Source: Pseudomonadota bacterium
Lineage (GTDB): Bacteria > Desulfobacterota > Binatia > Binatales > Binataceae
Direction: 5' to 3'
DNA: 64,000 bases
Assembly: GCA_021324885.1 (NCBI GenBank)
Contig: JAJPIF010000025.1
Span: 46,713 to 110,712 of the forward strand
A program made the position numbers and the translations under genes. The first letter of the stretch is position 1. Every line of letters begins with the position of its first letter. Under the pieces are notes generated by a model. It did not search any database, was not told the DNA's origin, and saw only the letters and a list, made by a program, of their open reading frames with translations. This document shows positions 7,091-34,827 of the stretch, one piece after another.

Positions 7091-7167
7091 GCGCCCTTAG
7101 CTCAGCGGATTAGAGCATCAGACTACGGATCTGAGGGTCGGGGGTTCAAATCCCTCAGGGCGCGCCA
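7091..7167 (+). tRNA. tRNA-Arg (anticodon ACG)
   Basis: 77-nt cloverleaf folded by hand: acceptor GCGCCCT/AGGGCGC, D-arm GCTC..GAGC, anticodon stem TCAGA/TCTGA with loop CTACGGA (anticodon ACG), variable loop GGGTC, T-arm GGGGG-TTCAAAT-CCCTC, discriminator G, encoded CCA. Confidence 0.9.
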
Positions 7168-9722: not shown

Positions 9723-10553
9723 TTGGATAAGAGTCATGGCACCGGGCAAATCCATCGGCAGACCAAGGCATACCAGGACACACGCTTCCTCGAAAGCAGG
9801 GAGGCGCGCGCGTTGCGCATTCTCGCCGAGTACCTCGAACCCCTGTCGCGCTTCAAACGCCACGGCGTGCGCGACACCATAGTGTTCATGGGTTCAGCGC
9901 GTTTGTTGCCGCGCGACAAGGCCGAGCGGGCGCTTGAACAGGCGAAAGCGGCGGGAATTGGCGTGGAGTCAGCGGCCACCGCGCTCGAGCTTTCGGCCTA
10001 CTACGAAGCTGCGCGCGAGCTCTCGTACAGACTGACGTTGTGGTCGAAAAAGCTTGACCATGGCGAGCGCCGCTTCGTGGTGTGCACGGGCGGCGGACCC
10101 GGCATCATGGAAGCCGCCAATCGCGGCGCGTCGGAAGCGAAAGGATTGAATATCGGACTGACTATTTCGATTCCCAACAATGAGTTCGACAATCCTTATG
10201 TCAGTCATGAGATGCGCTTTCATTTCCACTACTTCTTTATGCGCAAATTCTGGTTTGTCTACCTCGCCAAAGCGGTAGTGCTGTTTCCCGGCGGTTTCGG
10301 CACACTCGACGAGTTCTTCGAGATCCTCACTCTGGTGCAAACGCGAAAGATGAAAAAGCGCATGCCGATCGTGCTGTTCGGGGCAAAGTACTGGAACGAG
10401 GTATTGAACCTCGGCGCTTTAGTGAAATACGGCACCATCAGCTCCGGCGACGTCGAGCTGTTTCACCGCACTGACTCGGTCGATGAGGCCTACGATCTCA
10501 TAACCCGCGGACTTATCGAGAACGCGCTTGGAAGCCCGGGCGCGGAGCTCTAA
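9723..10553 (+). CDS. LOG family protein (TIGR00730; cytokinin riboside 5'-monophosphate phosphoribohydrolase-like, long YgdH/PpnN type)
   Basis: TTG start at 9723 with GAGGTGA Shine-Dalgarno 5 nt upstream. No in-frame ATG/GTG until far downstream. Motifs VFMGSAR, TGGGPGIMEAANRGA, PGGFGTLDEFFE. Confidence 0.75.
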   Translation: MDKSHGTGQIHRQTKAYQDTRFLESREARALRILAEYLEPLSRFKRHGVRDTIVFMGSARLLPRDKAERALEQAKAAGIGVESAATALELSAYYEAARELSYRLTLWSKKLDHGERRFVVCTGGGPGIMEAANRGASEAKGLNIGLTISIPNNEFDNPYVSHEMRFHFHYFFMRKFWFVYLAKAVVLFPGGFGTLDEFFEILTLVQTRKMKKRMPIVLFGAKYWNEVLNLGALVKYGTISSGDVELFHRTDSVDEAYDLITRGLIENALGSPGAEL

Positions 10554-10688: not shown

Positions 10689-11396
10689 GTGCCCATGTTC
10701 AGGAAGTGTATTCTCAACCGCGGCCCTCACTTCGCCAACGCGGCTTCGGGAATGGTCGTGCGAGGATTCGTGGTTGTCGTGCTTGTCCTTTGCCTCTGTG
10801 CAATCACCCGTGCCTCTGATTATGCAGCGGCGCCCTCGCAGTCGGCGCAGCGTCCGGTCTTCGTCGCGTGCGGTGAATATGCGCGCAAGGCGAGCGCTCA
10901 CATGCGCGGGATTGTAAGCGCCGTCGATCAGGTCTGGGACGCTCACGTCAGGGTTTATGAGTCGGTAGCGGTCGAACCTCCGCACGCGCGGCCCGGTGGA
11001 TGCATCATGTACAACACCGCTTATCTCAACATGCTGCTTCAGGATCTGTTGATCCGAGATCGGACGGTCGCGCAATCAATGCTGTACGCGATCATGGCTC
11101 ATGAGGTCGGGCACGAGCTGCATCACGATTTCAGCCCTCAACGCGCAAGCGTGCCAACCGAGACCAAAGAACTGCAAGCGGACCGATTCGCCGGATATAC
11201 AATGGAACGGCTCAATATAAACCTTGACAATATCGTGCCCTATTACAGCCTGGCGGGAGACGAATTCACCGGACAAGTCGGCCGTCCCGCCAGTCACGGC
11301 GAAAGCATGCAGCGCACCGACGCGCTCAAAAAGGGCTGGGACCAGGCGGAGTGGAACCAGCCCGAAGACTATCAGGGGCTGTCAGAAGACCAATAG
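10689..11396 (+). CDS. secreted minimal M48-like zinc metallopeptidase (HExxH ... ExxAD)
   Basis: GTG start 10689 (alternative ATG 10695). N-terminal signal/TM (VVRGFVVVVLVLCLCAITRA). HEVGHELHH zinc-binding motif followed by TKELQADRFAGY, resembling the third-ligand ExxAD motif of M48/HtpX-type peptidases. Confidence 0.5.
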   Translation: MPMFRKCILNRGPHFANAASGMVVRGFVVVVLVLCLCAITRASDYAAAPSQSAQRPVFVACGEYARKASAHMRGIVSAVDQVWDAHVRVYESVAVEPPHARPGGCIMYNTAYLNMLLQDLLIRDRTVAQSMLYAIMAHEVGHELHHDFSPQRASVPTETKELQADRFAGYTMERLNINLDNIVPYYSLAGDEFTGQVGRPASHGESMQRTDALKKGWDQAEWNQPEDYQGLSEDQ

Positions 11397-11490: not shown

Positions 11491-12111
11491 CTAAAGCGAG
11501 CGCCGCAACCGCGACGGGCGACGTCGTCCCGTTGTCCGGGGGGAGCAGGAACCGCCGGCCGCCTCCGCCCGTCTGCCGGACAATGTCGCGGTTTGGGCCG
11601 CCGATCTTCGCGGCGTGGCGGAGAGGCCCAGCACTCCCAGCAGGCGGCCTTCGATGGACGCGAGTTGCTCGGATATCGAGGCCAGGCCAGCGGCTTCCGC
11701 CGATATCGCTTCCGTCAAATCGCCCATGGGCAGTCTGAACGCCCCGTCCTCAACCGCCTTGTGAAGATCCCGCGCGTATTCGGCAACCGCCGTCTGGAGA
11801 TAATGGCACTGCCACCAGCGGGAGCGGGCCATGGCTTCTCCGATCGCGGCCCGATCGAGTACGGCGTCGTTTGCAGCCGCCCACCGGGCAACGCACTCGG
11901 CGATGGTGCGCACCGTGTCGCGGGGCAGCTTGGCCGCGATCAACGGATTGATCTCCCATCGGTCGGCGCGCCGGGCGAGCTCGACCCAATAGGTTTCCGC
12001 GCCGTTGCGCAGCGGACGCTCGCTGGCGCGCGCCACACGGACGCGGTCGCGCCCGAGCGGGTTGATGGTAAGGGTTCCGATCGGCGTCTTTACCTGCAAC
12101 TCCGGGTACAT
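11491..12111 (-). CDS. hypothetical protein
   Basis: 206 aa ORF with protein-like composition. The opposite-strand ORF 11593..12168 is low-complexity and was rejected. The C-terminal third is Arg/Ser/Gly-rich, so the 3' end is uncertain. Confidence 0.35.
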   Translation of the reverse strand: MYPELQVKTPIGTLTINPLGRDRVRVARASERPLRNGAETYWVELARRADRWEINPLIAAKLPRDTVRTIAECVARWAAANDAVLDRAAIGEAMARSRWWQCHYLQTAVAEYARDLHKAVEDGAFRLPMGDLTEAISAEAAGLASISEQLASIEGRLLGVLGLSATPRRSAAQTATLSGRRAEAAGGSCSPRTTGRRRPSRLRRSL

Positions 12112-12806: not shown

Positions 12807-13427
12807 ATGGTTGAGCGGATTGGAGCTATCACCGAAACCAAACGCTTCGAACAACTCGGTATCCTGGTGTTGGACGGATCTCCCTCGATGCAGGTTCCGG
12901 GTGAGACTGGTGTCCCCAAGACGGAAGAGGTCGCGTCCGCCGTCCGCGATCTGATTTTGAGAATGCGCAACTCGCGCCTCAGGTCCAATTTTTTTCTTTC
13001 TATCTTGAGCTACGATGAGAAAGTCAGAGGCCGACTCCCACCCACTCCGGTTTCGGAAATAGATGAAACCGCTGACTATAGTAATAATTTCGAGCACGGC
13101 AATGGCACCGCGATGGGTGACGCCTTGGAAGCCGCCGGCAAAGTTGCCGCGGAATTCCTGTCCAATCAGGGAGCAATTCCACGTTCGGCCGTTATTGTTT
13201 TAATGACCGACGGCCAGAATACCACCGGGAAAGATCCGGTCATGGTGGCCAACGCCATAAAAAACAGCGGACAGCGTATCTCGATCTGTGCGGCCGGATA
13301 CGGCAAGGACATTGACGAGGCCGGCTTGAGGAAACTGGTCAGCACGGCCAACAGCTATAAGCATACATACAATATCGAGGAATTGCGGCAGTTTTTCGAG
13401 GCCAGTATCTCAGTGGTAAGTGGATAG
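12807..13427 (+). CDS. von Willebrand factor type A (vWA) domain protein, TerY-like
   Basis: 206 aa. MIDAS motif DGSPSM at 12873-12890 (LVLDGSPSM), downstream VIVLMTDGQNT and AAGYG strands typical of vWA folds. Confidence 0.8.
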   Translation: MVERIGAITETKRFEQLGILVLDGSPSMQVPGETGVPKTEEVASAVRDLILRMRNSRLRSNFFLSILSYDEKVRGRLPPTPVSEIDETADYSNNFEHGNGTAMGDALEAAGKVAAEFLSNQGAIPRSAVIVLMTDGQNTTGKDPVMVANAIKNSGQRISICAAGYGKDIDEAGLRKLVSTANSYKHTYNIEELRQFFEASISVVSG

Positions 13428-13556
13428 GCTCTGAGGGCGCAATCAGTGCTGTCGAACCGAGCGGATCCGGTCGAGAGCGGACTTTAAGCGCGCAGCAGCG
13501 CCGTCCTTGAACGATTGGAATGAGCCAATCCTGTTGCGACTCGACTAAAAAGTCCT

Positions 13557-14477
13557 ATGAATAAGGCCAATCCTTACCCCTATCTGCTCATCAACACTCC
13601 CAGAGAAGCTGCCCCCTACACGATGCCCGGTATAGCGGCTGCCGCGACGGTCACTTCGAAGGGAACCAACCAGGATTCCTGCCAGATACGGTGCGCGGAC
13701 AACTTCTGCGCAATCGCGGTTGCCGACGGTCTGGGCACTTCGTTCGACGCCCACCTGGCCGCCTCGATAGTAACAACCGCTTTCGTGGAGGAATGCGGCG
13801 CCTTGGCCGCCCCAGGAGTCCTCCCTAGCACCGGTGCGGTGAACTTGGTATGGAAGAGGGTTGCCAAGCAACTGCATGATCACTATGTGCAGAGCCCCGA
13901 CCGCTATTTCGAACAGTCGGCGCCGCTGCAAACGACCCTGCTAGCGCTGATCGATACCGGCGACACGTATCTGTTCACCTATCTCGGCAACGGCAGCCTG
14001 CTCTATCTTCGCGGTGATTTCTGGCGCTTCAAGGGCAGGGACTGGCCTTGGTGCAGCACCGATCTAATCGTCAGCCACTCGTTCTTGGACAATGCGGGCA
14101 GAAGCAGACTTTACGGGATCATAGGACCCAACGGCCTGACGGCGGAACCCAACATGGGGCTGCTATCGAAGGATCAACGCTACGGGGAGTTCCTGATTCT
14201 ATGCACCGACGGAATAAGTTCGGCCGATAGTTTGAAAGTGGGACGGGATCCGCAGGAAAAGCTCTGGCTCGAAGCCAATAAAAACCTGGAAATCCTGATC
14301 AACCATGCGCTGCCCCGGTTTCTCGCTGAACTGGCAATGGATGCGCCCCCTGAACAGGCGCTGAGCGCGACCCTGAACACATATTTAGCCGGACAAAGTT
14401 TCGACGACGACGCGACCGTCGCGGTGCTGGTGTCGCGCCAGGCTATTGCTTATGCAAAGCAAAGATTTGGAAGATGA
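13557..14477 (+). CDS. PP2C-family serine/threonine protein phosphatase
   Basis: 306 aa; PP2C motifs NQDS, AVADGLGTS, LILCTDGISS. Stop overlaps the start of the next gene (ATGA at 14474-14477). Confidence 0.8.
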   Translation: MNKANPYPYLLINTPREAAPYTMPGIAAAATVTSKGTNQDSCQIRCADNFCAIAVADGLGTSFDAHLAASIVTTAFVEECGALAAPGVLPSTGAVNLVWKRVAKQLHDHYVQSPDRYFEQSAPLQTTLLALIDTGDTYLFTYLGNGSLLYLRGDFWRFKGRDWPWCSTDLIVSHSFLDNAGRSRLYGIIGPNGLTAEPNMGLLSKDQRYGEFLILCTDGISSADSLKVGRDPQEKLWLEANKNLEILINHALPRFLAELAMDAPPEQALSATLNTYLAGQSFDDDATVAVLVSRQAIAYAKQRFGR

Positions 14478-16234
14478 GCACCGCACTTTACATCAGCGGA
14501 GCCTGTGTCCGCTCGGGCCTTGGTCTGACTGCGGAGGAAGACAGCGCCCATGTCATAGAAATCGAAGACCGTCCGCTCGCGAAAGCAGGCGCGCATGGCA
14601 GTATCTTCCGCGCAATCAGCGTGGACGGCAGGCCCGTTTCCCGAAAACTGGTTAAGTGGCTGGCCGGCGGCTTTCCGCCCGACCTCGAGGAGATTCTCAA
14701 CGCATTGCGCATCCACCTCGCGAGCTATCCGCCCGAGGAACGCGTCGCCCTGAGCGCCCTTCCACTATTCATGTTCGAGAGCAGCCGCGCGGGTAAGCCG
14801 TTTCACGGCTACCTGATGCGCGAGGTGGAAGGCATCAATTTTCTCGACATTCTGGTCCAGGACATCAATACATATATCAATCTGCCTTTGGAAACGAGAC
14901 TGCGTCTGAGTCTTCAGTTTGTCGAAGGCATGAACGTCCTCTACGGATGCAACATCATTCATGCCGATCTTAACGGGCAGAACCTGATGGTGGATCTGGA
15001 GAACCAGAAACTCTCGATTATCGATATAGATGGCGCTGCGGTGGGCAGAGCCGATAATATACCTTTCGCTTTAAAATTCGAGCCCGGGTGGCTCGCGCCT
15101 GAAATCGATCGCCAACTCGTCGGCAGCACGCGCAAAGCTTCGGCGACGCTGGACACGCGGATCGACCTGTGGTCAATCGCGTGCGGGCTGCATTATCTGA
15201 TTTTCGGACTTTCTCCCTTTTTCTTCGCCGCCAGCCAGACGGATGTCGAACGCTACCTGGAACGCTACAGCTGGCCCTCTCTGAAGGGGATTGAGGGAGT
15301 CGAACTTCAAAATCAGGATGCCTTCGACTATTTCGAACGAGCCTATCTCGAGGTTCCCGACCTGCATCCGCTCTTTCAGCAGTCGTTTCAGCCGGGATAC
15401 CGTGATCCGTCGGCGAGAATCAATCCTTATCAATGGATGCGGGTTATACGGCGCTCTCTTCTAAAGATATCGTCGCCGCCAAAGAGAACCGAAGCCGCGG
15501 CACAGGTCCGCCGGTACGTCACCCTGGCCCTGGATGATGGAGCGCTGACCAAGAGCGAGGAAGCCTTCATTCTGGACCAGGCCGACCACCTCGGCATCCC
15601 AAGACTGGATCTGACCAGGCTGATCGAAGAGGAGTTCCGGAACTGGCGCAGCAGCATCGACGATGCCCTGGCGAAGAAGAAGGGACGCAAAACCGCGCAG
15701 CCGGAAACGATGGGCCGGCAAATAAAGCTCTTTCCCGTGTCCGGCGAGACGGCGGAGCATCACTTGCGAGCTCACACCGCTGTCTTCCTCGCCATACTGC
15801 TCGTATGCCTGATGGCTTCCCTGAGGTTCAGGAGCTCGCAGGACCTCGCCTCATTTCCACCGCCGCTCACGCCACGGTCGTCGGATGCGGAACCCACAGT
15901 CCCCGGCACTCCGGTTTCCCAGCCGCTCGCATCAGCCGTGCGCCGCTCTCAGGTCTCATCTCGACGTTTGTCATCTGAACGTTTGTCGTCCGAGGTCGAG
16001 CGCCTCCTCGCCGAGCAGGGATATTCCGGGATCAGGGCAAAGGTCAGGAAGTCCGGCAAAATCTATCTCTACGGAATCGCAAACAGCGCCCAGGAGCAGG
16101 AAGATATAATCTGGACGGTGCGTACGATCCGGCGCGTTCGAAAAGTCATATCCCACTTGCGATTGGCACCACAGAACGACAGCGAAGAGATCACCGCCCA
16201 ACAAGATTCATCGGCCGGTTTTCAATCGCATTGA
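14474..16234 (+). CDS. protein kinase-like (ePK-like) domain protein with TM segment and C-terminal BON-like domain
   Basis: 586 aa. Catalytic-loop-like HADLNGQN (about 14960-14983) and DFG-equivalent IDIDG (about 15018-15035). Glycine-rich-like AKAGAHGS and a Lys in VSRKLVK. One hydrophobic TM helix (TAVFLAILLVCLMASL). C-terminal about 60 aa (IRAKVRKSGKIYLYGIANSAQEQEDIIWTVRTIRRVRKVISHL) has the BON-domain pattern. Confidence 0.7.
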   Translation: MSTALYISGACVRSGLGLTAEEDSAHVIEIEDRPLAKAGAHGSIFRAISVDGRPVSRKLVKWLAGGFPPDLEEILNALRIHLASYPPEERVALSALPLFMFESSRAGKPFHGYLMREVEGINFLDILVQDINTYINLPLETRLRLSLQFVEGMNVLYGCNIIHADLNGQNLMVDLENQKLSIIDIDGAAVGRADNIPFALKFEPGWLAPEIDRQLVGSTRKASATLDTRIDLWSIACGLHYLIFGLSPFFFAASQTDVERYLERYSWPSLKGIEGVELQNQDAFDYFERAYLEVPDLHPLFQQSFQPGYRDPSARINPYQWMRVIRRSLLKISSPPKRTEAAAQVRRYVTLALDDGALTKSEEAFILDQADHLGIPRLDLTRLIEEEFRNWRSSIDDALAKKKGRKTAQPETMGRQIKLFPVSGETAEHHLRAHTAVFLAILLVCLMASLRFRSSQDLASFPPPLTPRSSDAEPTVPGTPVSQPLASAVRRSQVSSRRLSSERLSSEVERLLAEQGYSGIRAKVRKSGKIYLYGIANSAQEQEDIIWTVRTIRRVRKVISHLRLAPQNDSEEITAQQDSSAGFQSH

Positions 16235-23935: not shown

Positions 23936-25270
23936 TCAACCCGCGGTGGCGTGGCGAGAAGTCGGGATGCGAAATAATGGGATGTCTGTCCGCGAGGTCT
24001 TATCATCGATGTTCGTCGCATTGAGAGTAAACGACAAAGTAGCCATATATAAAACGATTGTCGCCACACCATACAACTCAAGGGCCATCTCGTAAAGCCG
24101 ATAGGCTTGACGGTAACCGAGGTACGAGATGATCGCGTGGGGCGGCGGCATGAACATCAGGGTTACGACCGTCAGGGAATAACTCGCCAAGGCCAACCAT
24201 TGTGCAGGGGAATCGATCCGGGAGCGGATGGAGGCGTAGATGATTTGTGAGAAGGGAATCAGGAAAAGCACCATGTAGTGAGGCCATGCTGTGGGTGAGA
24301 GCAACACGGACGCGACGATCCAAAGCGAAAATCCCCGCCAATCCGGGTCATCGCCTGGTTTCAGCTTGAAGGTTGCCCAGATTGTTATCCCTAGAAAGGC
24401 GGCATCCACGCCTGCGATGGTCAACCGCCGGATCAAATCGACGGTCGGCGTAAGTTGCTGCCCCATGGTGAACCAGAACACGCGGGATATAATCGCTTCA
24501 ATGGCGATGTCTATGTGACGGGCCTGTGAAAGATGTCCGAAGGTAAGCGCAACGCCATCCGTGAAAGACAGAGAATTCCTAATTCCAAAGATAGCGAGCG
24601 TAACCAAGCCGCCCGATCCGAGTCCAACACAAGTCCAGGCGAGCACGCGCCACCGGCGCTGAAGCGCCAGGTAAACGATCAGGAGCAAGGGAAAAATTCT
24701 GAGCAGACCGGCTAAAGCGAGAAAAATACCGGCCGCTCGATTCCAGCCCCTCTCCATCGCGCGCATCATCAAGACTAACAGCATCAGAATCGGGATTTTG
24801 CTTTGCGCAAACAGGTAATGCCATCCCAACGGCGGATAGAGCACTACCAAAGCGGTTATGGCCAATCGGCCCCTCGTAGTCAGACCTGAGGACCCTCCAA
24901 GGAGCAGGATGAAGGCGGCGCCGAGAAGGAACGTGTTGAGGCCAAGCCAGACATCGTACGCGGCGCGCTCCGGGATTCGGGCTAGCGGCGAAATCAACAG
25001 CAGAAAAGTGGGAGGATCGGTCGCATGACCGATCGGGCCGGCGTCCAGGCCGAGCTGCCCCCCGAGAGCATTGAAATCCGCCGTGTATGGATTAAGTCCG
25101 TCCCGCAACGCGGTTGCGGACAGATAATATATACTGAAGTCCCAGCGTGTGACTCGCCCCGGCAGTTGGACAATGATGCTCAAACCCTGGAGGATCGCGG
25201 CCACCCAGATCAGAGTAAGGGCGGCGGGCCCTGTTGAAGCTTGTGCAATTCTGGCGGGCGTGATACTCAA
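23936..25270 (-). CDS. glycosyltransferase family 87 (DUF2029, PimE/mannosyltransferase-like) membrane protein
   Basis: 444 aa polytopic. N-terminal DFSIYYLSATALRDGLNPY motif characteristic of DUF2029/GT87. 13-bp gap to the next gene and 48-bp gap from tadG. Confidence 0.55.
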   Translation of the reverse strand: MSITPARIAQASTGPAALTLIWVAAILQGLSIIVQLPGRVTRWDFSIYYLSATALRDGLNPYTADFNALGGQLGLDAGPIGHATDPPTFLLLISPLARIPERAAYDVWLGLNTFLLGAAFILLLGGSSGLTTRGRLAITALVVLYPPLGWHYLFAQSKIPILMLLVLMMRAMERGWNRAAGIFLALAGLLRIFPLLLIVYLALQRRWRVLAWTCVGLGSGGLVTLAIFGIRNSLSFTDGVALTFGHLSQARHIDIAIEAIISRVFWFTMGQQLTPTVDLIRRLTIAGVDAAFLGITIWATFKLKPGDDPDWRGFSLWIVASVLLSPTAWPHYMVLFLIPFSQIIYASIRSRIDSPAQWLALASYSLTVVTLMFMPPPHAIISYLGYRQAYRLYEMALELYGVATIVLYMATLSFTLNATNIDDKTSRTDIPLFRIPTSRHATAG

Positions 25271-25318: not shown

Positions 25319-26416
25319 CTACTGAATCAACTGAATTGCGATAGCGCCGCATGGTGTGGTTCCGCTGGGACCGCCCTCGCAGCCCGCGGGAGCACTGCCG
25401 CTGATGCCACCACCGGGGACGTCATCCGCAACCCAGCACGCGCTGATATCCTGCGAAGATCCGGCTCCGGTAACGTTTTGAATTAGAATTTCCGCAAAAC
25501 CAAGGACCGGAACACCGTTGGCCGGGCATCTGCCGGCGGGACAGAGGTTCCAATCGACCAAAGGAACGGTCACCACGCATGGGTTGGTGGTAGGCGAGTA
25601 CTGGTAGGCGTCCGCGCAGCTTACCGCTGGACAGGTACGGTAATCGGAGACCGTCTTAAACGAGGAGGTTCCGGCACCCGGCTGAGGCAGAGTGCAATTC
25701 TGAGTATTGGTTCCGTTACAAACGGTTCCCGCTGGAACCTCTGTAACCGTTCCGGTGTATCCATACTGGATCTGAGTGTTGACCGCTTCATGGCCCGTGG
25801 CATCGAACGAGAGCCAGCCCCAGTTGCCGGCAACGCAGCCGCCTGTTGGACATCCACTGGTGCCAAGGGCAACCAGATTGGAAATTGAGTTATTGGCTGA
25901 GAATTCTGCAACGGTTTGGTACTGCAAGCCGATAGGCAGCAGACTGGAGGAACCCGTTATCGTGTTTATCGGGCCGCCGATGGCCGACGCTGTCACGTCG
26001 ACGGTCCCACTGGATACGCCGACCAGGCGGGCGAAATGGTAGGGCACGCTCCTGGTTGCGGAAACAGTGATTTCACAATTGGTGGTTGGACAGTAGGTGG
26101 AATTTGTGGTCGGTGGCGCAGGTGGATAGGGGGTCAATTCGGTCGACGCAAGTCCGTTGTTGGTCGCGTAGTCGCCGGCTACGATGCTCGGCCCCGCGGT
26201 GCAGCTACTCGAGGTTGGGAACGCGATGCAGGTTGCGCCTGCGAGTGCGGAGGCGTCGACCGCGGTCTGTAACCGGTACTTGGTGAAATAAAGTGCGCCG
26301 ACATCCATGGCAAGGCCCAACGCCCCGATGAAGGCGGGGAGCGCTACCGCCATCAAAGCCATCGACTGTCCCCGTTCGGAGGTCAATCTGGCACCGCGGA
26401 AATTTCTGCGCTTCAT
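25319..26416 (-). CDS. tadG: TadG/TadE-like Flp pilus assembly protein (pseudopilin-like, Tad_N motif)
   Basis: Start at internal Met (MKRRNFRGARLTSERGQSMALMAVALPAFIGALGLAMDVGALY), the TadE/TadG N-terminal signature. Long Thr/Ser/Gly/Cys-rich extracellular part. Confidence 0.65.
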   Translation of the reverse strand: MKRRNFRGARLTSERGQSMALMAVALPAFIGALGLAMDVGALYFTKYRLQTAVDASALAGATCIAFPTSSSCTAGPSIVAGDYATNNGLASTELTPYPPAPPTTNSTYCPTTNCEITVSATRSVPYHFARLVGVSSGTVDVTASAIGGPINTITGSSSLLPIGLQYQTVAEFSANNSISNLVALGTSGCPTGGCVAGNWGWLSFDATGHEAVNTQIQYGYTGTVTEVPAGTVCNGTNTQNCTLPQPGAGTSSFKTVSDYRTCPAVSCADAYQYSPTTNPCVVTVPLVDWNLCPAGRCPANGVPVLGFAEILIQNVTGAGSSQDISACWVADDVPGGGISGSAPAGCEGGPSGTTPCGAIAIQLIQ

Positions 26417-26576
26417 GGTTCGGCTCCTTGGGTTTGAAGTGTGACTGGCAGCCATTGCCCCAGACAGCAGGAATGGAGCTGTAGACTTCTCTCTGTATAT
26501 AAAATCTCCGAAAAGAAGACAACGGTTACAAGTTTGGGTTGGCCGCTGGTCACGCCGCTACTCCGTCAGAGGGACT

Positions 26577-27515
26577 TCACATGTGAGCAAAAAACCGAAA
26601 AATGGTGAGCATGGCGGGGCCGACCAGCACCAGCAGCATCGCGGGCATCAGGAACAGGATCATCGGAATGATCATTTTGATCGGCAGCTTCTGAGCCATC
26701 TCCTCCGCCCGCAGGCTGCGCTTTGCACGCAACTGTTCGGCGGTGGCCCGCAGCGCCTCACTCATCTCGCTGCCCAGCTTTTCGCTTTGAATGAGGATGG
26801 CGGAAAGGGTACTGATGTCGTCCACGCCGGTCCGCTCCGCCATACCCCGCAATGCCTGTCCCAGAGTGGCCGCCGCGGTCATCTCGGCACAGAGCTGGAG
26901 CAGCAATTGACCCATAATACGCCGTTGGCGCTCCGATTCGCGGCCGACCACGCGGATTGCGGCCATCAGACCCAGGCCGCATTCGACGCATACCACGAGG
27001 AGGTCGATTACGTCGGGAATTTCGCGCCTGAGCGTAAGCTGGCGGTGTTTTGCCATTGACCGAACGTAGAAAATAGGTAGGGCATAGCCGGCCGCGCCGA
27101 ACACCAGCGTATAGAAAATGATAGAGCCGCCGGTGGCAACGGCCGCCAGGTACGCCACCAGGATACACAACCCAGTCGTGGCCAGGCGGACGAATTGGAA
27201 AACTTTTGGAGCCGCGGGGCTATAGAAGCCGGCGTATTGCAGAGTTTGCACCAGCTTCTCAACCGACGGTTTCTCCAGGTCGGGTTCGGGCATACGCCGC
27301 TGGGCGAAATCCATCAGCGTGGCGGCAATTCCGTGGGAGATTGGCTCCTCTGCCGGGGCGGTATTATCGCCAATTCTGAATTTCACCGCGAGATCGTCCA
27401 GACGCCGTTGGAGCTGTCTCTGGCCCCTGTCGACCGCGAAGTACAAGGTGGCACATACCCCGAACGCGAGCAGGAAGAACATCAGCAATGGCAATGTTTC
27501 GGTGCCGGCATTCAT
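26577..27515 (-). CDS. tadC: Flp pilus assembly protein TadC (type II secretion system F family)
   Basis: 312 aa; GspF-like inner-membrane platform pattern. Adjacent to tadB. Confidence 0.75.
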   Translation of the reverse strand: MNAGTETLPLLMFFLLAFGVCATLYFAVDRGQRQLQRRLDDLAVKFRIGDNTAPAEEPISHGIAATLMDFAQRRMPEPDLEKPSVEKLVQTLQYAGFYSPAAPKVFQFVRLATTGLCILVAYLAAVATGGSIIFYTLVFGAAGYALPIFYVRSMAKHRQLTLRREIPDVIDLLVVCVECGLGLMAAIRVVGRESERQRRIMGQLLLQLCAEMTAAATLGQALRGMAERTGVDDISTLSAILIQSEKLGSEMSEALRATAEQLRAKRSLRAEEMAQKLPIKMIIPMILFLMPAMLLVLVGPAMLTIFRFFAHM

Positions 27516-27516
27516 T

Positions 27517-28476
27517 TTAGTAATCCACCCGGGTGAAGCGCGAAATGGTGATCAACGCCAGGACTTCCAAAATCGCGGCGACCTCGACCAGTTTGATGCC
27601 GGTGGGGTCATGGAACAGCATCTGATTATGCTCAGGGGCCACAAAGTTCAACGCAACCAGCAGTATCAGCGGCATGAGTCCGCCGATGAGTGCACTCATT
27701 CGAGGCTGCGCCGTCAAGGCCCGCACTTTCATTTCCAGCCGCTGCCGGTCGCGAATAGTCTTGGACAACTGGCCGCTGATGCCGGCCAGGCTGCTGCCTA
27801 CTTCGGACTGGATTTTGACGGCGACCACCAGGAAGCGGAGATTCTCATCCGGCATGCGTTGGAGCATATACTCCAAGGCGCGAGCCAGCGGCACACCCAG
27901 CCGGTTTTGCTCCAGCACGATCCGCAATTCACTGGAGGCTGGTTCGCCAAACTCCTCGATTGTGACCTGCAAAGCGCGCTGCAAAGTGTGCCCCGCCTGA
28001 AGCGAGGATTTCATCAGGTCGAGGATTTCGGGCAATTGCTTGTCGAACGCCTTAAGCCGCTGGCGCTTGCGCCAGGCGACGTAGAGCAGAGGGGAGCCGC
28101 CGATAACGACACCCGCGACGACGCTTTGGAAGGTCTGCCACCCGCTCCAGACCGCCACGGCAAACCCCGCAGCGGTACCAAGCACCAGCATAAGCAGTAT
28201 CATGTCGCTGGCGCGGACATAGAGCCCGGCTTGCCAAAGATTCTCCTCCAGGCGCTGAGCCAAGTGCAGTTTCGATACCAAGTCGCCAAACATGTTCGAT
28301 TCGGAGGGACGGACATCGCGGGTGATGTCGATATCCGCCAGGTCCACCTCGGGCGACGGACGCGCCATGCGGCTCAGAATCATCTGCTGCTGGCTGGCGT
28401 AGTCCTGGCGGCGCATCGCCACAATGGTCAGCACCAGCACGGTCAGGAAGACAATCAACGGTACAAGAAGCTCCAT
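27517..28476 (-). CDS. tadB: Flp pilus assembly protein TadB (type II secretion system F family)
   Basis: 319 aa; GspF-like domain. 1-bp gap to tadC. Confidence 0.75.
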   Translation of the reverse strand: MELLVPLIVFLTVLVLTIVAMRRQDYASQQQMILSRMARPSPEVDLADIDITRDVRPSESNMFGDLVSKLHLAQRLEENLWQAGLYVRASDMILLMLVLGTAAGFAVAVWSGWQTFQSVVAGVVIGGSPLLYVAWRKRQRLKAFDKQLPEILDLMKSSLQAGHTLQRALQVTIEEFGEPASSELRIVLEQNRLGVPLARALEYMLQRMPDENLRFLVVAVKIQSEVGSSLAGISGQLSKTIRDRQRLEMKVRALTAQPRMSALIGGLMPLILLVALNFVAPEHNQMLFHDPTGIKLVEVAAILEVLALITISRFTRVDY

Positions 28477-28500
28477 CTCGACCTCCCGCCCGGCGCGGCC

Positions 28501-29874
28501 CTAACGCGCGCCAAACAATTTCGAATCCAGATGCAGTCCGGCGGCTTCAAGCCGCCGGGAGTAAACCGAGCGGATCCCCGTGGGCCGGAAGGTGCCGAGC
28601 ACTTTGCCGTCTGGCCCGACTCCAGTGCGCACGAACTCGAACAAGTCCTGCATCGAGATCGCCTCGCCCTCGACGCCGGTGACCTCTGAAATCTTGATCA
28701 GCTTGCGGCTGCCGTCGGAAAGCCGTGCGACCTGCAAAAAGATGTTGATTGCTGAACTGATCTGGGTTCGCATAGCGCGGTCGGGCAGCGCGAAACCGGA
28801 GAACATCATCATCATTTCAAGGCGGTTGAGGCTGTCGCGCGGACTGTTGGCGTGGATAGTGGAAATCGAGCCGTCATGGCCGGTGGACATGGCCTGAAGC
28901 ATGTCGATTACTTCGGCGCCGCGCACCTCGCCGACAACGATGCGGTCGGGACGCATGCGCAGAGAGTTCCGCACCAGGTCGCGCTGGGTTACCTCGCCTT
29001 TGCCTTCCAGATTGGGTGGACGGGTCTCCAGCCGGACCACGTGCGGTTGCTGGAGCGAAAGTTCGGCCGAGTCCTCGATCGTAATGATGCGTTCGTTGTG
29101 CGGTATAAAGGAGGTCAGGCAGTTCAACATCGTGGTTTTGCCCGATCCGGTACCGCCGCAGACCAGCAGATTGAGCCTGGCTTTGACGATCACATTGAGA
29201 AATTCGGCCATCTGCGTGGTCAGAGTGCCATTCTTGATCAGAGTATCGATGGTGAGCGGCTCGCGTCCGAAGCGGCGGATCGACAGAACCGGACCGTCCA
29301 GAGCCAGCGGTGGAATAATCGCGTTGACGCGCGAGCCGTCGGCCAGGCGCGCATCGACCATCGGCGAGGATTCGTCGACGCGGCGGCCAACGCTGGCAAC
29401 GATGCGTCCGATTACGTTGAGCAGATGTTCGTCATCCTGAAAAACGACATCGGTCTTGTACAGTTTGCCGCCGCGCTCGATATAAACCTCGCTGGAGCCG
29501 TTAACCAGGATATCGCTGATGGTATCGTCGCGGAGCAGCGGCTCCAGCGGCCCGAGGCCAAGGATTTCATTTTTGACCTCTTCGATCAGCCGCAGGCGAT
29601 CCGTATCGGTGACCAGCCGATCCTGCTCCTCCAGATGCTCGTTTATAGCCGCCGTCAGTTTGGTCTGGACCTGGGCCTGATCCAGCGACTCGATTTTGCT
29701 CACGTCCAGCGTGTGAAGCAGATAATCGAGCATCTCGCTTTTCAGTTCGCGAAACGCCGCCGCGTCACCGGTCTCCTTTGTAGTATCCCGGCGCTGGGAA
29801 ACCACCGCCAACGAGGAAACCGCCGTTGAGCCGCTGCCGTTCGCGTTTTTCGAGAGACGTTCACTCAGCGGCAT
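28501..29874 (-). CDS. cpaF: CpaF/TadA family pilus assembly ATPase
   Basis: 457 aa; Walker [15 protein letters not shown], secretion-ATPase His box region. Confidence 0.85.
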
Positions 29875-29877
29875 CGC

Positions 29878-31107
29878 TTATCTCCTGGAGTTCTTCCCAT
29901 TACGTGAGAATGAAAAAAACTTGTTGAACAGGCTGGCCTTGGGCTTCTTCTGAGCCAGACCGCAAAGCTCATTCGCCAACGCTTCATATCCGCGGACCAG
30001 CGCCGAACGAGGCGCGACCTTCCACAGATCTTCACCGCGGGTCACAACCAGCCGAATAGAATCATCGTCGCGGGGCAAGCGTGCGGCCAAGGGACGCCCC
30101 AGCGTATTGGTAATATGCTTGTCGCTGATTGGATGGTGCGCAATCCAGCGGTTGAGGACGATTCTGGGAGCGATATTGGAGAGATTGAGCCGGCCAAACA
30201 GGTCCAGGAAACGCCACGCCCCGCGAATCGCGCCGATCGACTGGTCGATCACGTACACTATCTCGTCCGAGTTCTCCCATGCCGCGACCGAACTGTCGTT
30301 GATGTGGCGACCGACATCCACAATCACCACGTCCACCATCTCGAGCAGCATGGACAGAATATCGGTGACCCGCGAAGAAGGAACTTGCTCGCTTTCCTCG
30401 ATCCGGCGCGGTGCGGCGAGCAGATATATCCCCGAGGGATGTCTGGTCAGGGCGGATTCGACCTGCACCGAGTTAAGGCGGATTTTTGCCTCCGCCAGAT
30501 TAATAATCGAGTGCTCGGGTTCGAGGTTGAGGGCAGCGTCAAGGTCGCCGGACTGGAAGTCCAGGTCAACCAACGCAACCTTTTTTTCGGTCGAATGAGC
30601 TAGCGCCAGTGCGCAGTTGGCAGCGATCGTGGTCACGCCGGCGCCGCCCGTCACGCTGACCATCGAAATCAGTCTGCCCCTGGTACCCGGTTGGGGAGCG
30701 GCACTGACTTCGCTGATTTTCAGCAGAGCGCGGGCCAGTTCTCCCTGGTCGACAGGCAGGAACAGAACCTCATCCGCACCGGCACGCAGCGCGGCGCGCA
30801 CGGCTTGCGGCGCCCGCTCCTTCATCAGCGCAATGCGGACCGGTGTCTTGCCTGATTCGGCGCCCGGCGCCGGAATACGCGCGGGATGACGCTCGCTGGT
30901 GAAGACGAACATCACGACATCGGTGGGCTCGCGCATCTGTTCGGGACGCGCGGCGATATCGGCGTCGTGGATATCCAGCGGCTCCTCGGTGGCTTCCAGA
31001 GCCGCGCGGATTTGCGCGCCATTATCGGGATCGGCAAACAGGAGGACGCGCAGTTTGCGCGGTCCGCCTGCCGGCTCATGAAGCAGGATGTCAGCGTCTT
31101 GCGCCAC
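29878..31107 (-). CDS. cpaE: CpaE/TadZ-like pilus localisation protein (pseudo-receiver + deviant ParA/MinD-like ATPase domain)
   Basis: 409 aa. N-terminal receiver-like domain, then a ParA-fold domain whose Walker A reads SVTGGAGVTT (about 30631-30657) instead of KGGxGK[ST], so both lysines are replaced. Confidence 0.7.
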   Translation of the reverse strand: MAQDADILLHEPAGGPRKLRVLLFADPDNGAQIRAALEATEEPLDIHDADIAARPEQMREPTDVVMFVFTSERHPARIPAPGAESGKTPVRIALMKERAPQAVRAALRAGADEVLFLPVDQGELARALLKISEVSAAPQPGTRGRLISMVSVTGGAGVTTIAANCALALAHSTEKKVALVDLDFQSGDLDAALNLEPEHSIINLAEAKIRLNSVQVESALTRHPSGIYLLAAPRRIEESEQVPSSRVTDILSMLLEMVDVVIVDVGRHINDSSVAAWENSDEIVYVIDQSIGAIRGAWRFLDLFGRLNLSNIAPRIVLNRWIAHHPISDKHITNTLGRPLAARLPRDDDSIRLVVTRGEDLWKVAPRSALVRGYEALANELCGLAQKKPKASLFNKFFSFSRNGKNSRR

Positions 31108-31109
31108 TG

Positions 31110-33050
31110 CTAGAATCTCGGCCGCGCCGCGTCCGGCGTGGTCAGCGAGCGGGTCCGGACTTCTTCCGGCGTCAGCGGTCCCTGGCGTTCGGTGGGCAGC
31201 GCCACTTCGGCACCCGGCGGCAGCGGCCGGACGATTTCCGGGGTCACGCTCATTACCAGTTCATCCTTGTCATGCTGCCAGTAGGTTTGTTTGAACAGGC
31301 TGCCCAAATAGGGAATATCGCCCAGATAGGGAACCTTCTGAACCTGGGCTTTGCTGGTATCGAGAATCAAGCCGGCAATGATCAAGGTCTGGTTATCACG
31401 AAGGCGGACGCGAGTTTCAGCCCGGCGGGTCAGAAATGCCGGCACCGTAAAGCCAAATAGCGAAACACCCTGTGAATAGTCCGGCTGCGAGACTTCCGGC
31501 CGCACCGCCAGGTCGATGTCGCCACCACCGATTACGGTCGGCACGAAGATCACCGAAGTACCATACTGCTTGAATACGATCGTGGTGGTCAGGGCCTGGG
31601 TGATTACGATCGGAATTTCGCCGCCGTCCAGAAACTTCGCCTTTTGACCGGAATTGGCCAGCAGTTGCGGCCGGGCCAGAATTCTGGCGAGGTTGTGCTG
31701 CTCGAGAAACTGGAAAAAGGCATAGGTCGACACATTGGAGTTCTGACCGGCTACCGCGTAAGTAATATTTTGTGAATTCAGCAGCGGCATGGTCGTACCG
31801 CCCGGAACCATGCTGATCGGACCTTCGGCGCCGGCGGCCGTGAAGGGGGTGGCAACATAACCGGGGAAGCTCAGAGCAGTAAAGCCGTACTTGGTCAGGG
31901 CCGCCGAAATGTTGACGCCCATCTGCTCCAGTTTGCTGAGGTCAACCTCGGCCACAATCGCATGCAGCATGACCTCCTGATGGCCCGCGATTTCGGTCCA
32001 AATCTGCCGCTCCAGATAGTTGCCCTGGCTGTCCCAGACCACCAGCGTGCTGAAGCCGGGCTTGTGCCCAACCAGCATCACCTGATGATTTCCGAGCACT
32101 TGGACGTCCGCCACTCCGCTATTGGAGATCGAAATCCGGCTGATAGGCCCGCCGAAATCATAGACCTGGGAGGTTCCGGAGGTGATCGTAATGGTGCCCG
32201 GGGGCAGGTTGTGCCGGCCGCCAAAGGCCACGTGATTGACGTAGCTCTCCGAGCCTGCCAACGCACGCGGATTCGTCGTGAACTGCTGGTTGAGCACAGC
32301 GGGCGGCTGTTCATGCCATTGGCTGCCGGTACTGGCGGCGACGTTGGCCGAAAGCGTCTGCGCCGAGCTATCGGACGACGTCACACCGCTGGCGTAGTCC
32401 TCTCCATTCGCTCCGCTGAATGCGGTTGGTCCCACCACTTCGGTCTTGGTGGTGATGCTATCCCCATTTGCGTTCGCAGCGGCCCCTGAGGACGCAGCCG
32501 CCACCGGTCCGGTTCCTGAGTCGGGGGCGCTGGCGACCACGCCTGCACCGGGTCCCATGGTACCGGCCGGCGCAACGGCAGTTTCAGCCTTCGCTATAGG
32601 CGCAGGGTTCGCCACCGCAGCGGTGGCGGGAGCGTACGGAGCGGGAGCGGCAGTTTCGGGATGACCCGCGCCACTCAAGACCGGCGGCGGTGAGGAGCCC
32701 GGATTGAGCGGGCTGCTGGCATTGACAACACCGCCGACGATGACGTGATAAGTTACGTCTTCGCCCCCCACTTTGGTCTGGATTGAACCTTCGCCAGGCT
32801 GAAAACTGAATATGGTCAGCGAATGGGAGCCGGTGTTTTTGACCGTGAAGGCGTTGGGGTTGCTGATGAAGTTGACCACCGGTGCGGCGGTGGTATCGAC
32901 GTTTTTGATTTGATAAGCCTCGCCAGCCTTAAGCGTCACCGTTACCAGTTGCTGGGCATAAACCTGGCCGGGAGCGAGGGCGGCGCCGGTTATTAGGAGA
33001 GCCGCGACCAAGGCTGCGTGAAAATTAAACTGACTCTTAGTAGGCTTCAT
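31110..33050 (-). CDS. cpaC: CpaC/RcpA secretin (type II/III secretion system secretin family)
   Basis: 646 aa with signal peptide. C-terminal secretin domain pattern. Shares its last base with the cpaB stop/start junction (TAATG). Confidence 0.8.
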   Translation of the reverse strand: MKPTKSQFNFHAALVAALLITGAALAPGQVYAQQLVTVTLKAGEAYQIKNVDTTAAPVVNFISNPNAFTVKNTGSHSLTIFSFQPGEGSIQTKVGGEDVTYHVIVGGVVNASSPLNPGSSPPPVLSGAGHPETAAPAPYAPATAAVANPAPIAKAETAVAPAGTMGPGAGVVASAPDSGTGPVAAASSGAAANANGDSITTKTEVVGPTAFSGANGEDYASGVTSSDSSAQTLSANVAASTGSQWHEQPPAVLNQQFTTNPRALAGSESYVNHVAFGGRHNLPPGTITITSGTSQVYDFGGPISRISISNSGVADVQVLGNHQVMLVGHKPGFSTLVVWDSQGNYLERQIWTEIAGHQEVMLHAIVAEVDLSKLEQMGVNISAALTKYGFTALSFPGYVATPFTAAGAEGPISMVPGGTTMPLLNSQNITYAVAGQNSNVSTYAFFQFLEQHNLARILARPQLLANSGQKAKFLDGGEIPIVITQALTTTIVFKQYGTSVIFVPTVIGGGDIDLAVRPEVSQPDYSQGVSLFGFTVPAFLTRRAETRVRLRDNQTLIIAGLILDTSKAQVQKVPYLGDIPYLGSLFKQTYWQHDKDELVMSVTPEIVRPLPPGAEVALPTERQGPLTPEEVRTRSLTTPDAARPRF

Positions 33051-34093: not shown

Positions 34094-34151
34094 CAGCTTT
34101 GTGTAACTGCGCTCCCATCACAGGCCCGACACATTAAAATCTTGTTTTAAA

Positions 34152-34700
34152 TTATTCAACCATCACCGACGTCGAATTGCTGATCGGTGTTGTTTTAAAC
34201 GTCGAGATAAACGGCAAAGAATACCCCAGGAAATCCGTTGGCAGGAAAAGCTTGTTTCCCTTGTATAAATTGTAACTTATCGTGACGGTGAGCTGGTCGC
34301 CCGAGTTGATGGTGCTATCGCTGCTTCCTGTGCTGGTTGTACAGGCGATGTTGGAAATACTTAGCCCGGAACCGCCGGAGCAGCCGTCAAAGCCTGAAGT
34401 GCAAATGGTTGGCGGGGTCGGCACGTTGGCTTCGATGGTTGAATTGTAGGATGTATCGCAGTTTGAGCCGGTACCATGGACTGCGGCATAGCGCGCAGCT
34501 ACATAAGAATATTCACTGACAGCTAATGCTGCGTTAAAAATCAGGGCAAGCTGCAATCCGCCGAACAGGATAAGCAGGACCACGGCGATGGCGATAGCGG
34601 TTTCAACCATCGCCTGCCCCAGCTCAGCTCGACGCCCACGGCGGACCGTATGGCCTGATTTTCTCGGCAAGAAGCTAGCGTATAAGCATGGTTGACTCAT
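34152..34700 (-). CDS. tadE: TadE-family pseudopilin-like protein
   Basis: ORF 34152..34772. TadE N-terminal pattern RRGRRAELGQAMVETAIAIAVVLLILF after internal Met (34700). No clear Shine-Dalgarno for either start, so the start is uncertain. Ser/Thr-rich extracellular part. Confidence 0.6.
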   Translation of the reverse strand: MSQPCLYASFLPRKSGHTVRRGRRAELGQAMVETAIAIAVVLLILFGGLQLALIFNAALAVSEYSYVAARYAAVHGTGSNCDTSYNSTIEANVPTPPTICTSGFDGCSGGSGLSISNIACTTSTGSSDSTINSGDQLTVTISYNLYKGNKLFLPTDFLGYSLPFISTFKTTPISNSTSVMVE

Positions 34701-34827
34701 TGTGATCAGGAGACGCCAATTATTTTCGTTTCGCGGGCCGGCCGGCCACCATTTCCTGCTTAAGCCGTGCATCGATAGGCATGCACGGCTTTCTCAACGC
34801 TCCTTTTATACATCACAAACCGCGAAA

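Follow-up and report, generated by a model that had tools for sequence, protein, structure and literature searches.

TerY-P systems combine a TerY-like VWA protein, a PP2C phosphatase and a Ser/Thr kinase (STK) whose C-terminal fusions vary (PMC11090510; PMC4978471), a concept that both papers trace to Anantharaman, Iyer and Aravind (2012). At the C terminus of the kinase, a zinc ribbon or an OB fold is found (PMC11090510; PMC4978471), and the system has been predicted to act as a metal-sensing phospho-switch (PMC11090510; PMC4978471; PMC7699616). According to the accounts in PMC7699616 and PMC11090510, a stand-alone TerY-P system with an STK-OB kinase protected against T7-like phages (Gao et al. 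2020). Moreover, Kaur et al. (2020) described such kinases fused to transmembrane (TM) helices (PMC7159879). Here we analyzed a stretch of 64,000 nucleotides (the window) from a Pseudomonadota bacterium (assembly GCA_021324885.1, contig JAJPIF010000025.1, positions 46,713 to 110,712), in which three genes encode a vWA protein, a PP2C-family phosphatase and a kinase with a TM helix and a C-terminal BON domain.

We conclude that this triad is a divergent TM-BON variant of a known, computationally defined kind, i.e., a TerY-P-like triad. Its kinase is likely to be a catalytically competent, non-RD protein kinase of the eukaryotic protein kinase (ePK) fold that forms the membrane-anchored third component of a TerY-P-type vWA-PP2C-kinase phospho-switch.

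An atypical catalytic centre in a protein kinase fold

The kinase open reading frame (ORF) comprises an N-terminal kinase domain, a helical juxtamembrane domain, a TM helix, a Pro/Ser-rich linker and a BON domain (Table 1). The beta-3 Lys, the catalytic Asp, the Mg-binding Asn and the DFG Asp are all present (K61, D165, N170 and D184). The motifs around them are not the canonical ones, i.e., HRD is H-A-D and DFG is D-I-D. The four residues between HxD and Asn are a family-defining signature (PMC1821047); they read L-N-G-Q instead of the [LI]-K-P-x of Ser/Thr kinases. An earlier note on this DNA, made from the sequence alone, had described a catalytic loop without Lys and an IDIDG in place of DFG. 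Both observations hold, with Asn167 at the Lys position and Asp184-Ile185-Asp186 as the DFG equivalent; no canonical Hanks motif reappeared on alignment, and the catalytic Asp165 is in place. The note had also called the Gly-rich loop degenerate. This applies to the first Gly, which is lost, but the second and third glycines (G39 and G42) are kept and are 98% and 96% conserved, respectively, in the family (all conservation figures refer to 163 aligned family sequences).

In phmmer alignments to PDB chains, Asp184 falls on the DFG Asp. We ruled out the other register, in which Asp186 would be the DFG Asp, because the residue following Asp184 is F, Y, L or I across the family and the PDB alignments favour Asp184. 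We also considered Lys37, located at the first Gly position, as a WNK-style stand-in for the absent loop Lys; it was ruled out, a Lys being found there in just 12 of the 163 sequences. The activation segment D184–E210 comprises 26 residues and contains no Ser, Thr or Tyr. A loop without Ser/Thr together with HAD for HRD is in keeping with a kinase whose activation does not depend on loop phosphorylation.

Profile and structure searches identified the domain as an ePK. Pfam Pkinase (PF00069) matched with 47.9 bits against a cut-off of 31.7 (E 1.6e-12), aligning the C-lobe only (aa 144–262); given this E value and the positions conserved across the family, the motifs are far beyond chance. When 79 family members were scanned with Pfam, 78 matched Pkinase and 75 PK_Tyr_Ser-Thr, with APH found in 15, RIO1 in nine and Kdo in seven. 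The 60 matches listed from a phmmer search against all PDB chains were exclusively Ser/Thr protein kinases, and the best of them were of the STE20 type, i.e., MINK1, MAP4K4 and TNIK (E ~2e-5). An AlphaFold2 model built with ten homologues had a predicted local distance difference test score (pLDDT) of ~90 across the kinase and juxtamembrane regions. A Foldseek search of this model against the PDB returned ePKs only (50 of 50), including GSK3-beta, PRPF4B, CDC7 and NIK; ePK-like small-molecule kinases (ELKs) were absent from the top 50–60 structural matches.

An extended activation loop, the APE motif, the helix-F W-[SA]-x-G motif and a helix-I Arg are specific for ePKs and PknB and are lacking in ELKs (Kannan et al., PMC1821047). 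The window kinase has all of these marks, 91–98% conserved, in the form of its 26-residue segment, WLAPE, D231-L-W-S and R315; the Gly of W-S-x-G is Ala. WLAPE, DLWS and Arg315, which the earlier note had not listed, are protein-kinase hallmarks. The DFG Gly is ePK-specific as well, yet choline kinase has Glu and the active Mnk kinases have Asp at this position (PMC1821047).

The catalytic centre could also be read as that of a functional ELK of the Kdo/WaaP-, RIO- or APH-like type that would use lipids, sugars or envelope precursors as substrates at the inner membrane. Like ELKs (Kdo/WaaP, PF06293; RIO, PF01163; APH/ChoK, PF01636/PF01633), the window kinase lacks a Lys between HxD and Asn and has 'ID.D' for DFG, i.e., the DFG-Gly position holds an acidic or other non-Gly residue, as with the Glu of ChoK (PMC1821047). 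Sub-threshold ELK matches were obtained over aa 145–191 with RIO1 (19.3 bits, cut-off 22), APH (14.6 bits, cut-off 23.2) and the NCBIfam Kdo kinase model (E 0.012, 14.7 bits, cut-off 142); Pfam Kdo did not match the window kinase. Moreover, the archetypal TerY-P kinase of the ter cluster passes the Pfam Kdo cut-off and is named as InaA family (see below), and the window kinase is membrane-anchored and adjoins envelope glycosyltransferase-like genes. However, all ELK matches are local and below cut-off, whereas score and fold of the domain as a whole are those of an ePK, and the conserved activation segment, APE, helix-F W-S and Arg315 are features that ELKs do not have. The obligatory PP2C protein phosphatase partner argues for a phosphoprotein, and the envelope genes lie on the opposite strand and are not kept beside the triad in other loci. 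An ELK acting on a small molecule or lipid is therefore very unlikely.

The earlier note had placed the kinase closer to small-molecule or lipid kinases than to Hanks kinases. This likeness is real over aa 145–191 but does not extend to the whole domain, where the Pkinase score above cut-off, the PDB matches to Ser/Thr kinases and the conserved C-lobe motifs contradict it. The non-protein substrate that the note had envisaged is unlikely, as the conserved ePK substrate lobe and the PP2C-vWA operon point to a protein phospho-switch; the Pkinase score and the conserved C-lobe marks favour its other option, a divergent Ser/Thr kinase. The window kinase thus carries an ELK-like catalytic-centre signature within a full ePK substrate-binding lobe.

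Conserved catalytic residues and two catalytic-loop forms

An exhaustive HMMER search with a profile of the kinase domain yielded 250 cluster representatives at E <= 1e-30; a word-based search had found few relatives only. Among the matches listed, the kinase domain lies at or near the N terminus and is followed by variable tails. These include BON (4 of 79), PDZ, SH3, PEGA, TPR, FGE-sulfatase, zinc ribbon, Ig-like repeats and EAD11. The EAD11 fusion, a metagenome protein of 454 aa (P0019), joins the kinase domain to an effector-associated, death-like adaptor domain. Its loop reads HANLNKDT, with another residue in place of the catalytic Asp, and the protein may serve a conflict system as a pseudokinase adaptor.

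Within the family, K61, D165 and D184 are each 99% conserved (162/163), position 186 is always Asp or Glu (100%) and G188 is 99% conserved, the pattern at the DFG site being D-[FYLI]-[DE]-[GS]-G. The non-RD motif HAD is common to most members (H163 94%, A164 91%), and the same holds for APE (95–98%), D231 (91%), W233 (96%), S/A234 (97%) and R315 (96%). Asn170 is present in the window kinase and in the whole of its clade.

The residue at the Asn167 position is Asn in 91 and Lys in 63 of the 163 sequences, and those with Lys mostly lack the downstream Asn. Two nearly exclusive catalytic-loop forms result, HAD[LI]N..N in 89 sequences, the window kinase among them, and HAD.K..[ACS], which has lost the Mg-binding Asn, in 56. 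Just seven sequences retain both the loop Lys and this Asn. Both forms have, without exception, Asp or Glu at the DFG-Gly position. In a neighbour-joining tree, the K..A form came close to monophyly, canonical K..N sequences lying at its margins. A TM helix was found in 48 of 89 kinases of the N..N form versus 2 of 51 of the K..A form. Such an ordered loop pattern under conservation argues for working enzymes rather than decaying ones; H-A-D-L-N-x-x-N and D-I-D are a conserved lineage signature and not a sign of decay, and the window kinase is probably active.

A pseudokinase or scaffold, in which the altered motifs mean lost catalysis and the domain binds nucleotide or partners only, would account for the absent loop Lys, the replaced Phe and Gly of DFG, the lost first G-loop Gly, the failure to find a conserved helix-C Glu and the loss of the catalytic Asp in the EAD11-fused relative. 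We nevertheless regard it as very unlikely. Lys61, Asp165, Asp184 and Asn170 are present and strongly conserved, and the substitutions are fixed family-wide in two orderly forms, as expected for a working variant and not for drift. The dedicated phosphatase partner is retained. Moreover, Mnk kinases are active ePKs with DFD (PMC1821047), so that D-x-D is compatible with protein-kinase activity.

It is improbable, though less so, that TerY-P-type kinases, the window kinase among them, form a lineage of their own in which an ELK-like catalytic centre is combined with an ePK substrate lobe, with altered phosphotransfer chemistry and with the TM-BON variant as a trans-envelope sensor not described before. 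In such a lineage, the invariant Asp/Glu186 might replace the helix-C Glu or add a metal ligand. The TM-BON sensor would report envelope or lipid damage, e.g., phage entry, to the vWA/MIDAS output, with the membrane link coming either from the kinase itself or from a separate DUF4407 protein. Altered chemistry of this kind would explain why loss of the loop Lys or of the loop Asn is tolerated, the two being almost never kept together.

A conserved vWA-PP2C-kinase operon

The kinase gene closes a co-oriented operon (12807–16234), its ATG overlapping the stop codon of the PP2C gene by 4 nt (ATGA). The vWA protein at the head of the operon has no signal peptide or TM segment visible in its sequence. 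Its metal ion-dependent adhesion site (MIDAS) is intact (DGSPS, Thr101, Asp134), and the MIDAS residues (DxSxS, Thr, Asp) are at least 90% conserved in 23 related loci. Likewise, the acidic metal-ligand motifs of the PP2C (ADGxG, DG..S.D, DD) are conserved across 25 loci. With the MIDAS site and the PP2C motifs conserved, all three triad proteins look functional by sequence.

We fetched 30 related loci, among them four metagenome contexts and 23 genome loci. Order and strand of vWA, PP2C and kinase were kept in 26 of the 26 loci with enough upstream DNA, across ~7 phyla and at kinase identities down to 24%. In the other four, the contig ends before the vWA position (L005, L021, L024) or holds kinase and DUF4407 matches only (L025). 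The genome loci came from Proteobacteria and Acidobacteriota metagenome-assembled genomes (MAGs), Verrucomicrobiae, Nitrospiraceae, Armatimonadaceae, Longimicrobium and, within the Bacteroidota, Pedobacter, Hymenobacter, Neolewinella and Saprospiraceae. All-against-all clustering of the locus ORFs found no other gene as widely conserved as the triad. This operon context, absent from the earlier note, is decisive, as it points to a protein phospho-switch. In a Thermoanaerobaculaceae MAG (L030, 2644–5420), the PP2C and kinase matches are split over several frames, apparently a pseudogenised copy of the triad. In the window, an Rfam search of 10–18 kb gave nothing, and promoter and terminator scans of 12.0–16.5 kb did not exceed shuffled expectation.

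Membrane architecture

The juxtamembrane domain is common to the three closest relatives and holds the motif LALDDGALTKSEEAFILDQADHLGI. A PDB profile search with this domain gave nothing meaningful. Its TerB-like identity was not established, Pfam TerB staying below cut-off (E 0.023–0.05) in two of four relatives; this faint TerB (tellurite-resistance) signal is intriguing beside the TerY-P link, as a lead rather than a claim.

The TM helix is followed in the model by a disordered Pro/Ser-rich linker and the BON domain; the sole other hydrophobic stretch of the ORF is the buried helix F of the kinase. Pfam BON scored 26.7 bits in the full protein (aa 502–566) against a cut-off of 27, and 31.1 bits when only the C-terminal 97 aa were used. 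The modelled elements are helix 499–514, strands 521–524 and 529–536, helix 539–550 and strand 557–564. Over 21,761 bases, the window differs from a public MAG contig (JBAIIF010000223.1, GCA_037025025.1) by a single base, C instead of A at 15923, which gives Pro in place of Thr at aa 484, within the disordered, presumably periplasmic linker.

The ORF has no N-terminal signal peptide. A single TM helix behind an N-terminal ATP-using domain without signal peptide would place the BON domain outside the inner membrane, facing the periplasm. The trans-envelope architecture with a periplasm-facing BON domain put forward in the earlier note is thus consistent with one TM helix lying between the two domains. 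BON domains are in general regarded as membrane-lipid binders. Relatives at 58–73% identity have the same architecture, one of them with an additional PDZ domain behind BON.

A DUF4407 (PF14362) membrane protein directly adjoins the triad in 18 of the 30 related loci (L007, L011–L014, L016–L019 and L022–L030, e.g., L012:6983–8371, L016:467–2092 and L024:2013–3548; Pfam E 1e-33 to 1e-78). Kinases beside DUF4407 are all without a TM helix, and kinases without this neighbour, that of the window included, have a TM helix of their own, with one exception and two incomplete contigs. This complementarity of kinase TM helix and DUF4407 neighbour suggests a role for membrane association in the working of the module. 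No paper linking DUF4407 to vWA-PP2C-kinase triads came up in a literature search.

Relation to TerY-P systems

The window vWA protein matched a vWA protein from a Rhodoferax plasmid, where its gene is the first of another vWA-PP2C-kinase set; the kinase of this set has the motifs YGDLSPAN and IDADN and matches >2,300 enterobacterial plasmids (PLSDB). On the IncHI2 plasmid pF1140-1, the matching gene (WP_001284313.1) closes a classical ter cluster, i.e., terW, VWA, TerD, VWA, TerY_C/VWA, PP2C and kinase. This ter-cluster kinase aligned with aa 99–211 of the window kinase at 28% identity (BLASTP E 3e-8), which is remote homology only. At the aligned positions it reads HSDLSYKN, IIDVDG and FIAPE, and Pfam Pkinase (39.4 bits) covers the same C-lobe stretch, with a local Kdo match (23.4 bits) just above the cut-off of 21.3. 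Since the archetypal ter-cluster kinase has the same signature, the atypical motifs are a hallmark of TerY-P-type kinases; the likeness to ELKs seen in the earlier note mirrors an existing ambiguity of annotation. The window vWA shares 26% identity (E 4e-4) with the stand-alone VWA protein at the TerY position of the IncHI2 cluster and has no TerY_C domain.

The PGAP name of the ter-cluster kinase is 'lipopolysaccharide kinase InaA family protein', though Pfam Pkinase is its best match. The naming of ter-cluster kinases looks like a systematic ambiguity that stems from the Kdo-like catalytic-loop segment. A DUF4236 protein is encoded just upstream of the vWA gene in the locus of the relative P0004 (L002:3593–3916, L003:1253–1576), and a DUF4236 domain protein is also found in the IncHI2 ter cluster (L033:1633–2841); tblastn found no DUF4236 gene in the window. 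Plasmid vWA matches in Enterobacter, Lelliottia and Leclercia were ruled out as triads, being SrfABC-linked vWA proteins. A tblastn search of plasmids with the window kinase domain gave no match.

Several observations weigh against an active kinase in a TerY-P-type switch. The Lys of the catalytic loop, a gamma-phosphate contact in Ser/Thr kinases, is absent, the DFG Gly is Asp, and the helix-C region of the family alignment has no conserved acidic column for the helix-C Glu; altered chemistry or low activity could follow. Regulation by activation-loop autophosphorylation would be excluded, because the sequence of this loop holds no Ser/Thr. The kinase similarity to archetypal TerY-P is remote (28% over ~110 residues), and a pairwise match of the window PP2C to the archetype PP2C was not significant. 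PADLOC TerY-P models reached E 0.023 (STK_OB) and E 0.0043 (PP2C), with no match for vWA and no system-level hit. Finally, the window genes scanned included no ter, McrBC or nuclease genes, and the triad has a Tad pilus locus and envelope glycosyltransferase-like genes as its neighbours instead of a defence island.

The triad might serve as a stand-alone anti-phage or conflict module of the TerY-P type whose membrane/BON part detects envelope damage or phage entry. The reported protection against T7-like phages (Gao et al. 2020, as cited above) points in this direction. So does the self-contained nature of the module, which is patchy across phyla and has changing neighbours, e.g., SIR2/NUDIX genes in L006 and a TraG-like conjugation gene in L007, and whose kinase C termini are highly variable. 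However, neither the PADLOC result nor the window neighbourhood is that of a defence system, no effector domain was found in or beside the window triad, and a scan of viral contigs revealed no relatives. We consider a defence role a serious possibility, although one that falls short of being probable.

Genomic neighbourhood

The triad lies between a tRNA-Arg gene and a group of envelope-related genes (Table 1), and metabolic genes are found nearby as well. The two genes at 10689–11396 and 11491–12111 are not conserved beside the triad in other loci. On the other side, four large membrane-protein genes and a GT87 gene lead to a complete Tad/Flp pilus locus. Downstream of the triad, both L001 and the closest relative, L004, have a paralogous gene for a membrane protein of 535 aa.

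This setting recalls a housekeeping function, i.e., a PknB/PstP-like transmembrane kinase-phosphatase pair that would monitor periplasm or outer-membrane lipid via BON and regulate envelope or pilus biogenesis. The PDZ domain behind BON in the closest differently tailed relative, the shared 535-aa membrane-protein gene and the adjacent Tad and GT87/GT-C-like genes would fit this. Yet the next relative has different neighbours (PPDK and DUF1329 in L002), PknB systems have nothing that corresponds to the invariably linked vWA gene, and the family distribution is patchy rather than core. Housekeeping envelope signalling therefore seems rather unlikely to us.

Table 1. Positions of the triad genes, of elements within the kinase and of neighbouring genes (window coordinates unless another contig is named)
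Feature	Residues	Position	Strand	Remarks
tRNA-Arg(ACG)		7091–7167	+	5.6 kb upstream of triad
LOG/SLOG-type protein		9723–10553	+	Lysine_decarbox + LDcluster4; between tRNA-Arg and triad
Protein with HEVGHELHHD motif	235 aa	10689–11396	+	Zinc-protease-like motif; weak M48/M78 matches only
Protein without Pfam match	206 aa	11491–12111	-	
vWA protein (gene 1)	206 aa	12807–13427	+	Stand-alone, cytoplasmic; Pfam VWA 51.8 bits
PP2C-family Ser/Thr phosphatase (gene 2)	306 aa	13557–14477	+	Pfam PP2C_2 44 bits
Kinase (gene 3)	586 aa	14474–16234	+	ATG start
ePK-fold kinase domain	1–332	14474–15469	+	
Gly-rich loop AKAGAHGS	36–43	14579–14602	+	G39/G42 = PKA G52/G55; Lys37 at first Gly position
Lys61	61	14654–14656	+	beta-3 ATP-anchoring lysine (LVK)
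Catalytic loop HADLNGQN	163–170	14960–14983	+	His163, Ala164 (non-RD), catalytic Asp165, Asn167 for Lys, Mg-binding Asn170
IDIDG	183–187	15020–15034	+	Asp184 = DFG Asp; Ile185 for Phe; Asp186 for Gly; then Gly187
WLAPE	206–210	15089–15103	+	End of activation segment
DLWS	231–234	15164–15175	+	Helix F; subdomain IX Asp231 and ePK-specific W-[SA] motif
Arg315	315	15416–15418	+	Start of helix I; equivalent of ePK-specific PKA Arg280
Juxtamembrane domain	338–403	15485–15682	+	Cytoplasmic (predicted); helices with pLDDT >90
TM helix	~430–452	15761–15829	+	Kyte-Doolittle mean up to 2.0 over 19 residues; model helix 428–456
BON domain (PF04972)	~499–566	15968–16171	+	alpha-beta-beta-alpha-beta, pLDDT 79–88
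Four predicted membrane proteins	537, 540, 715, 703 aa	16332–23922	-	Consecutive; no Pfam match; first two paralogous
GT87 glycosyltransferase		23936–25270		After the four membrane proteins
Tad/Flp pilus locus, complete		25319–34772	-	TadG-like (Tad, Tad_C), two T2SSF (TadC, TadB), T2SSE ATPase (TadA/CpaF), ParA-like TadZ/CpaE, secretin (RcpA/CpaC), RcpC/CpaB, TadE
PMT_2 glycosyltransferase		35710–37179	+	After Tad locus
ter-cluster TerY-P kinase, WP_001284313.1		L033 (E. coli IncHI2 plasmid pF1140-1) 8518–10017		

Proposed mechanism

We propose the following model for the triad as a membrane-anchored phospho-switch of the TerY-P type. The kinase and helical juxtamembrane domains would be cytoplasmic, with the TM helix spanning the inner membrane and the flexible Pro/Ser linker holding the BON domain in the periplasm. 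An envelope change that is sensed or anchored through BON would alter the output of the kinase, which would then phosphorylate Ser/Thr of a cytoplasmic protein, the likeliest targets being the vWA partner or the kinase itself. The co-translated PP2C would reset the phosphorylation state, and the metal-binding vWA (MIDAS) protein may act as a phospho-regulated adaptor or output.

TerY-P triads are widespread, the ter-cluster version alone accounting for the >2,300 enterobacterial plasmids mentioned above, and one version is anti-phage. With the TM-BON variant and the complementary DUF4407 partner, the membrane is suggested to be part of a TerY-P-like mechanism. The family signature moreover explains conflicting database names, i.e., 'protein kinase' versus 'lipopolysaccharide kinase InaA family', and its two alternative loop forms provide testable mutants (N167K, D186G, N170A). 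The finding is modest; it would gain weight if the lineage-specific catalytic centre proved mechanistically distinct.

Comparison with known systems

The closest described system is the ter-cluster TerY-P. Both have vWA, PP2C and kinase in this order on one strand, with a stand-alone vWA of similar size and an N-terminal kinase domain. Both kinases have H-x-D-L-[S/N]-x-x-N without Lys and I-I-D-[IV]-D-G for DFG, keep APE and combine a Pkinase match on the same C-lobe stretch with a local Kdo-like signal. In contrast to the window kinase, however, the tail of the ter-cluster kinase lacks a TM helix or BON domain, the PP2C is a 545-aa protein with a long N-terminal extension, and the genes sit among the ter genes TerD, TerW and TerY_C, none of which is found in the window.

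The TerY-P system of Gao et al. (2020), as described in the papers citing it, follows the same three-component logic and is the sole version with an experimental phenotype. The window proteins matched its PADLOC models (PP2C, PDLC02222; STK_OB, PDLC02223) marginally, and its kinase ends in an OB fold instead of TM helix and BON. The kinase-PP2C-vWA sets that Kaur et al. (2020) found beside GAP1-N2 GTPase systems in actinobacteria (PMC7159879) show the range of kinase tails that is also seen in the window kinase family. These sets, however, belong to GTPase-centred actinobacterial conflict systems, whereas the window has no such GTPase and its host is apparently Gram-negative, the closest genome locus to the triad being that of a Proteobacteria MAG.

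Transmembrane Hanks kinases of the PknB/PstP type offer a further comparison. PknB is paired with a PP2C phosphatase, as is the window kinase, and, being of the RD type, has the canonical motifs HRDLKPxN and DFG as well as activating Thr residues in its loop. The window kinase differs as a non-RD (HAD) kinase without loop Lys, with DID and with no Ser/Thr in its activation loop. Moreover, M. tuberculosis PknB (PDB 1MRU) has PASTA as outer domain where BON is found here, and PknB systems lack a vWA partner. Mnk1/2, i.e., the MAPK-interacting kinases, resemble the window kinase as bona fide ePKs with D-x-D in place of DFG, but they are eukaryotic and have no further specific similarity to it. 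ELKs share the features of the catalytic centre with the window kinase but not its ePK substrate lobe.

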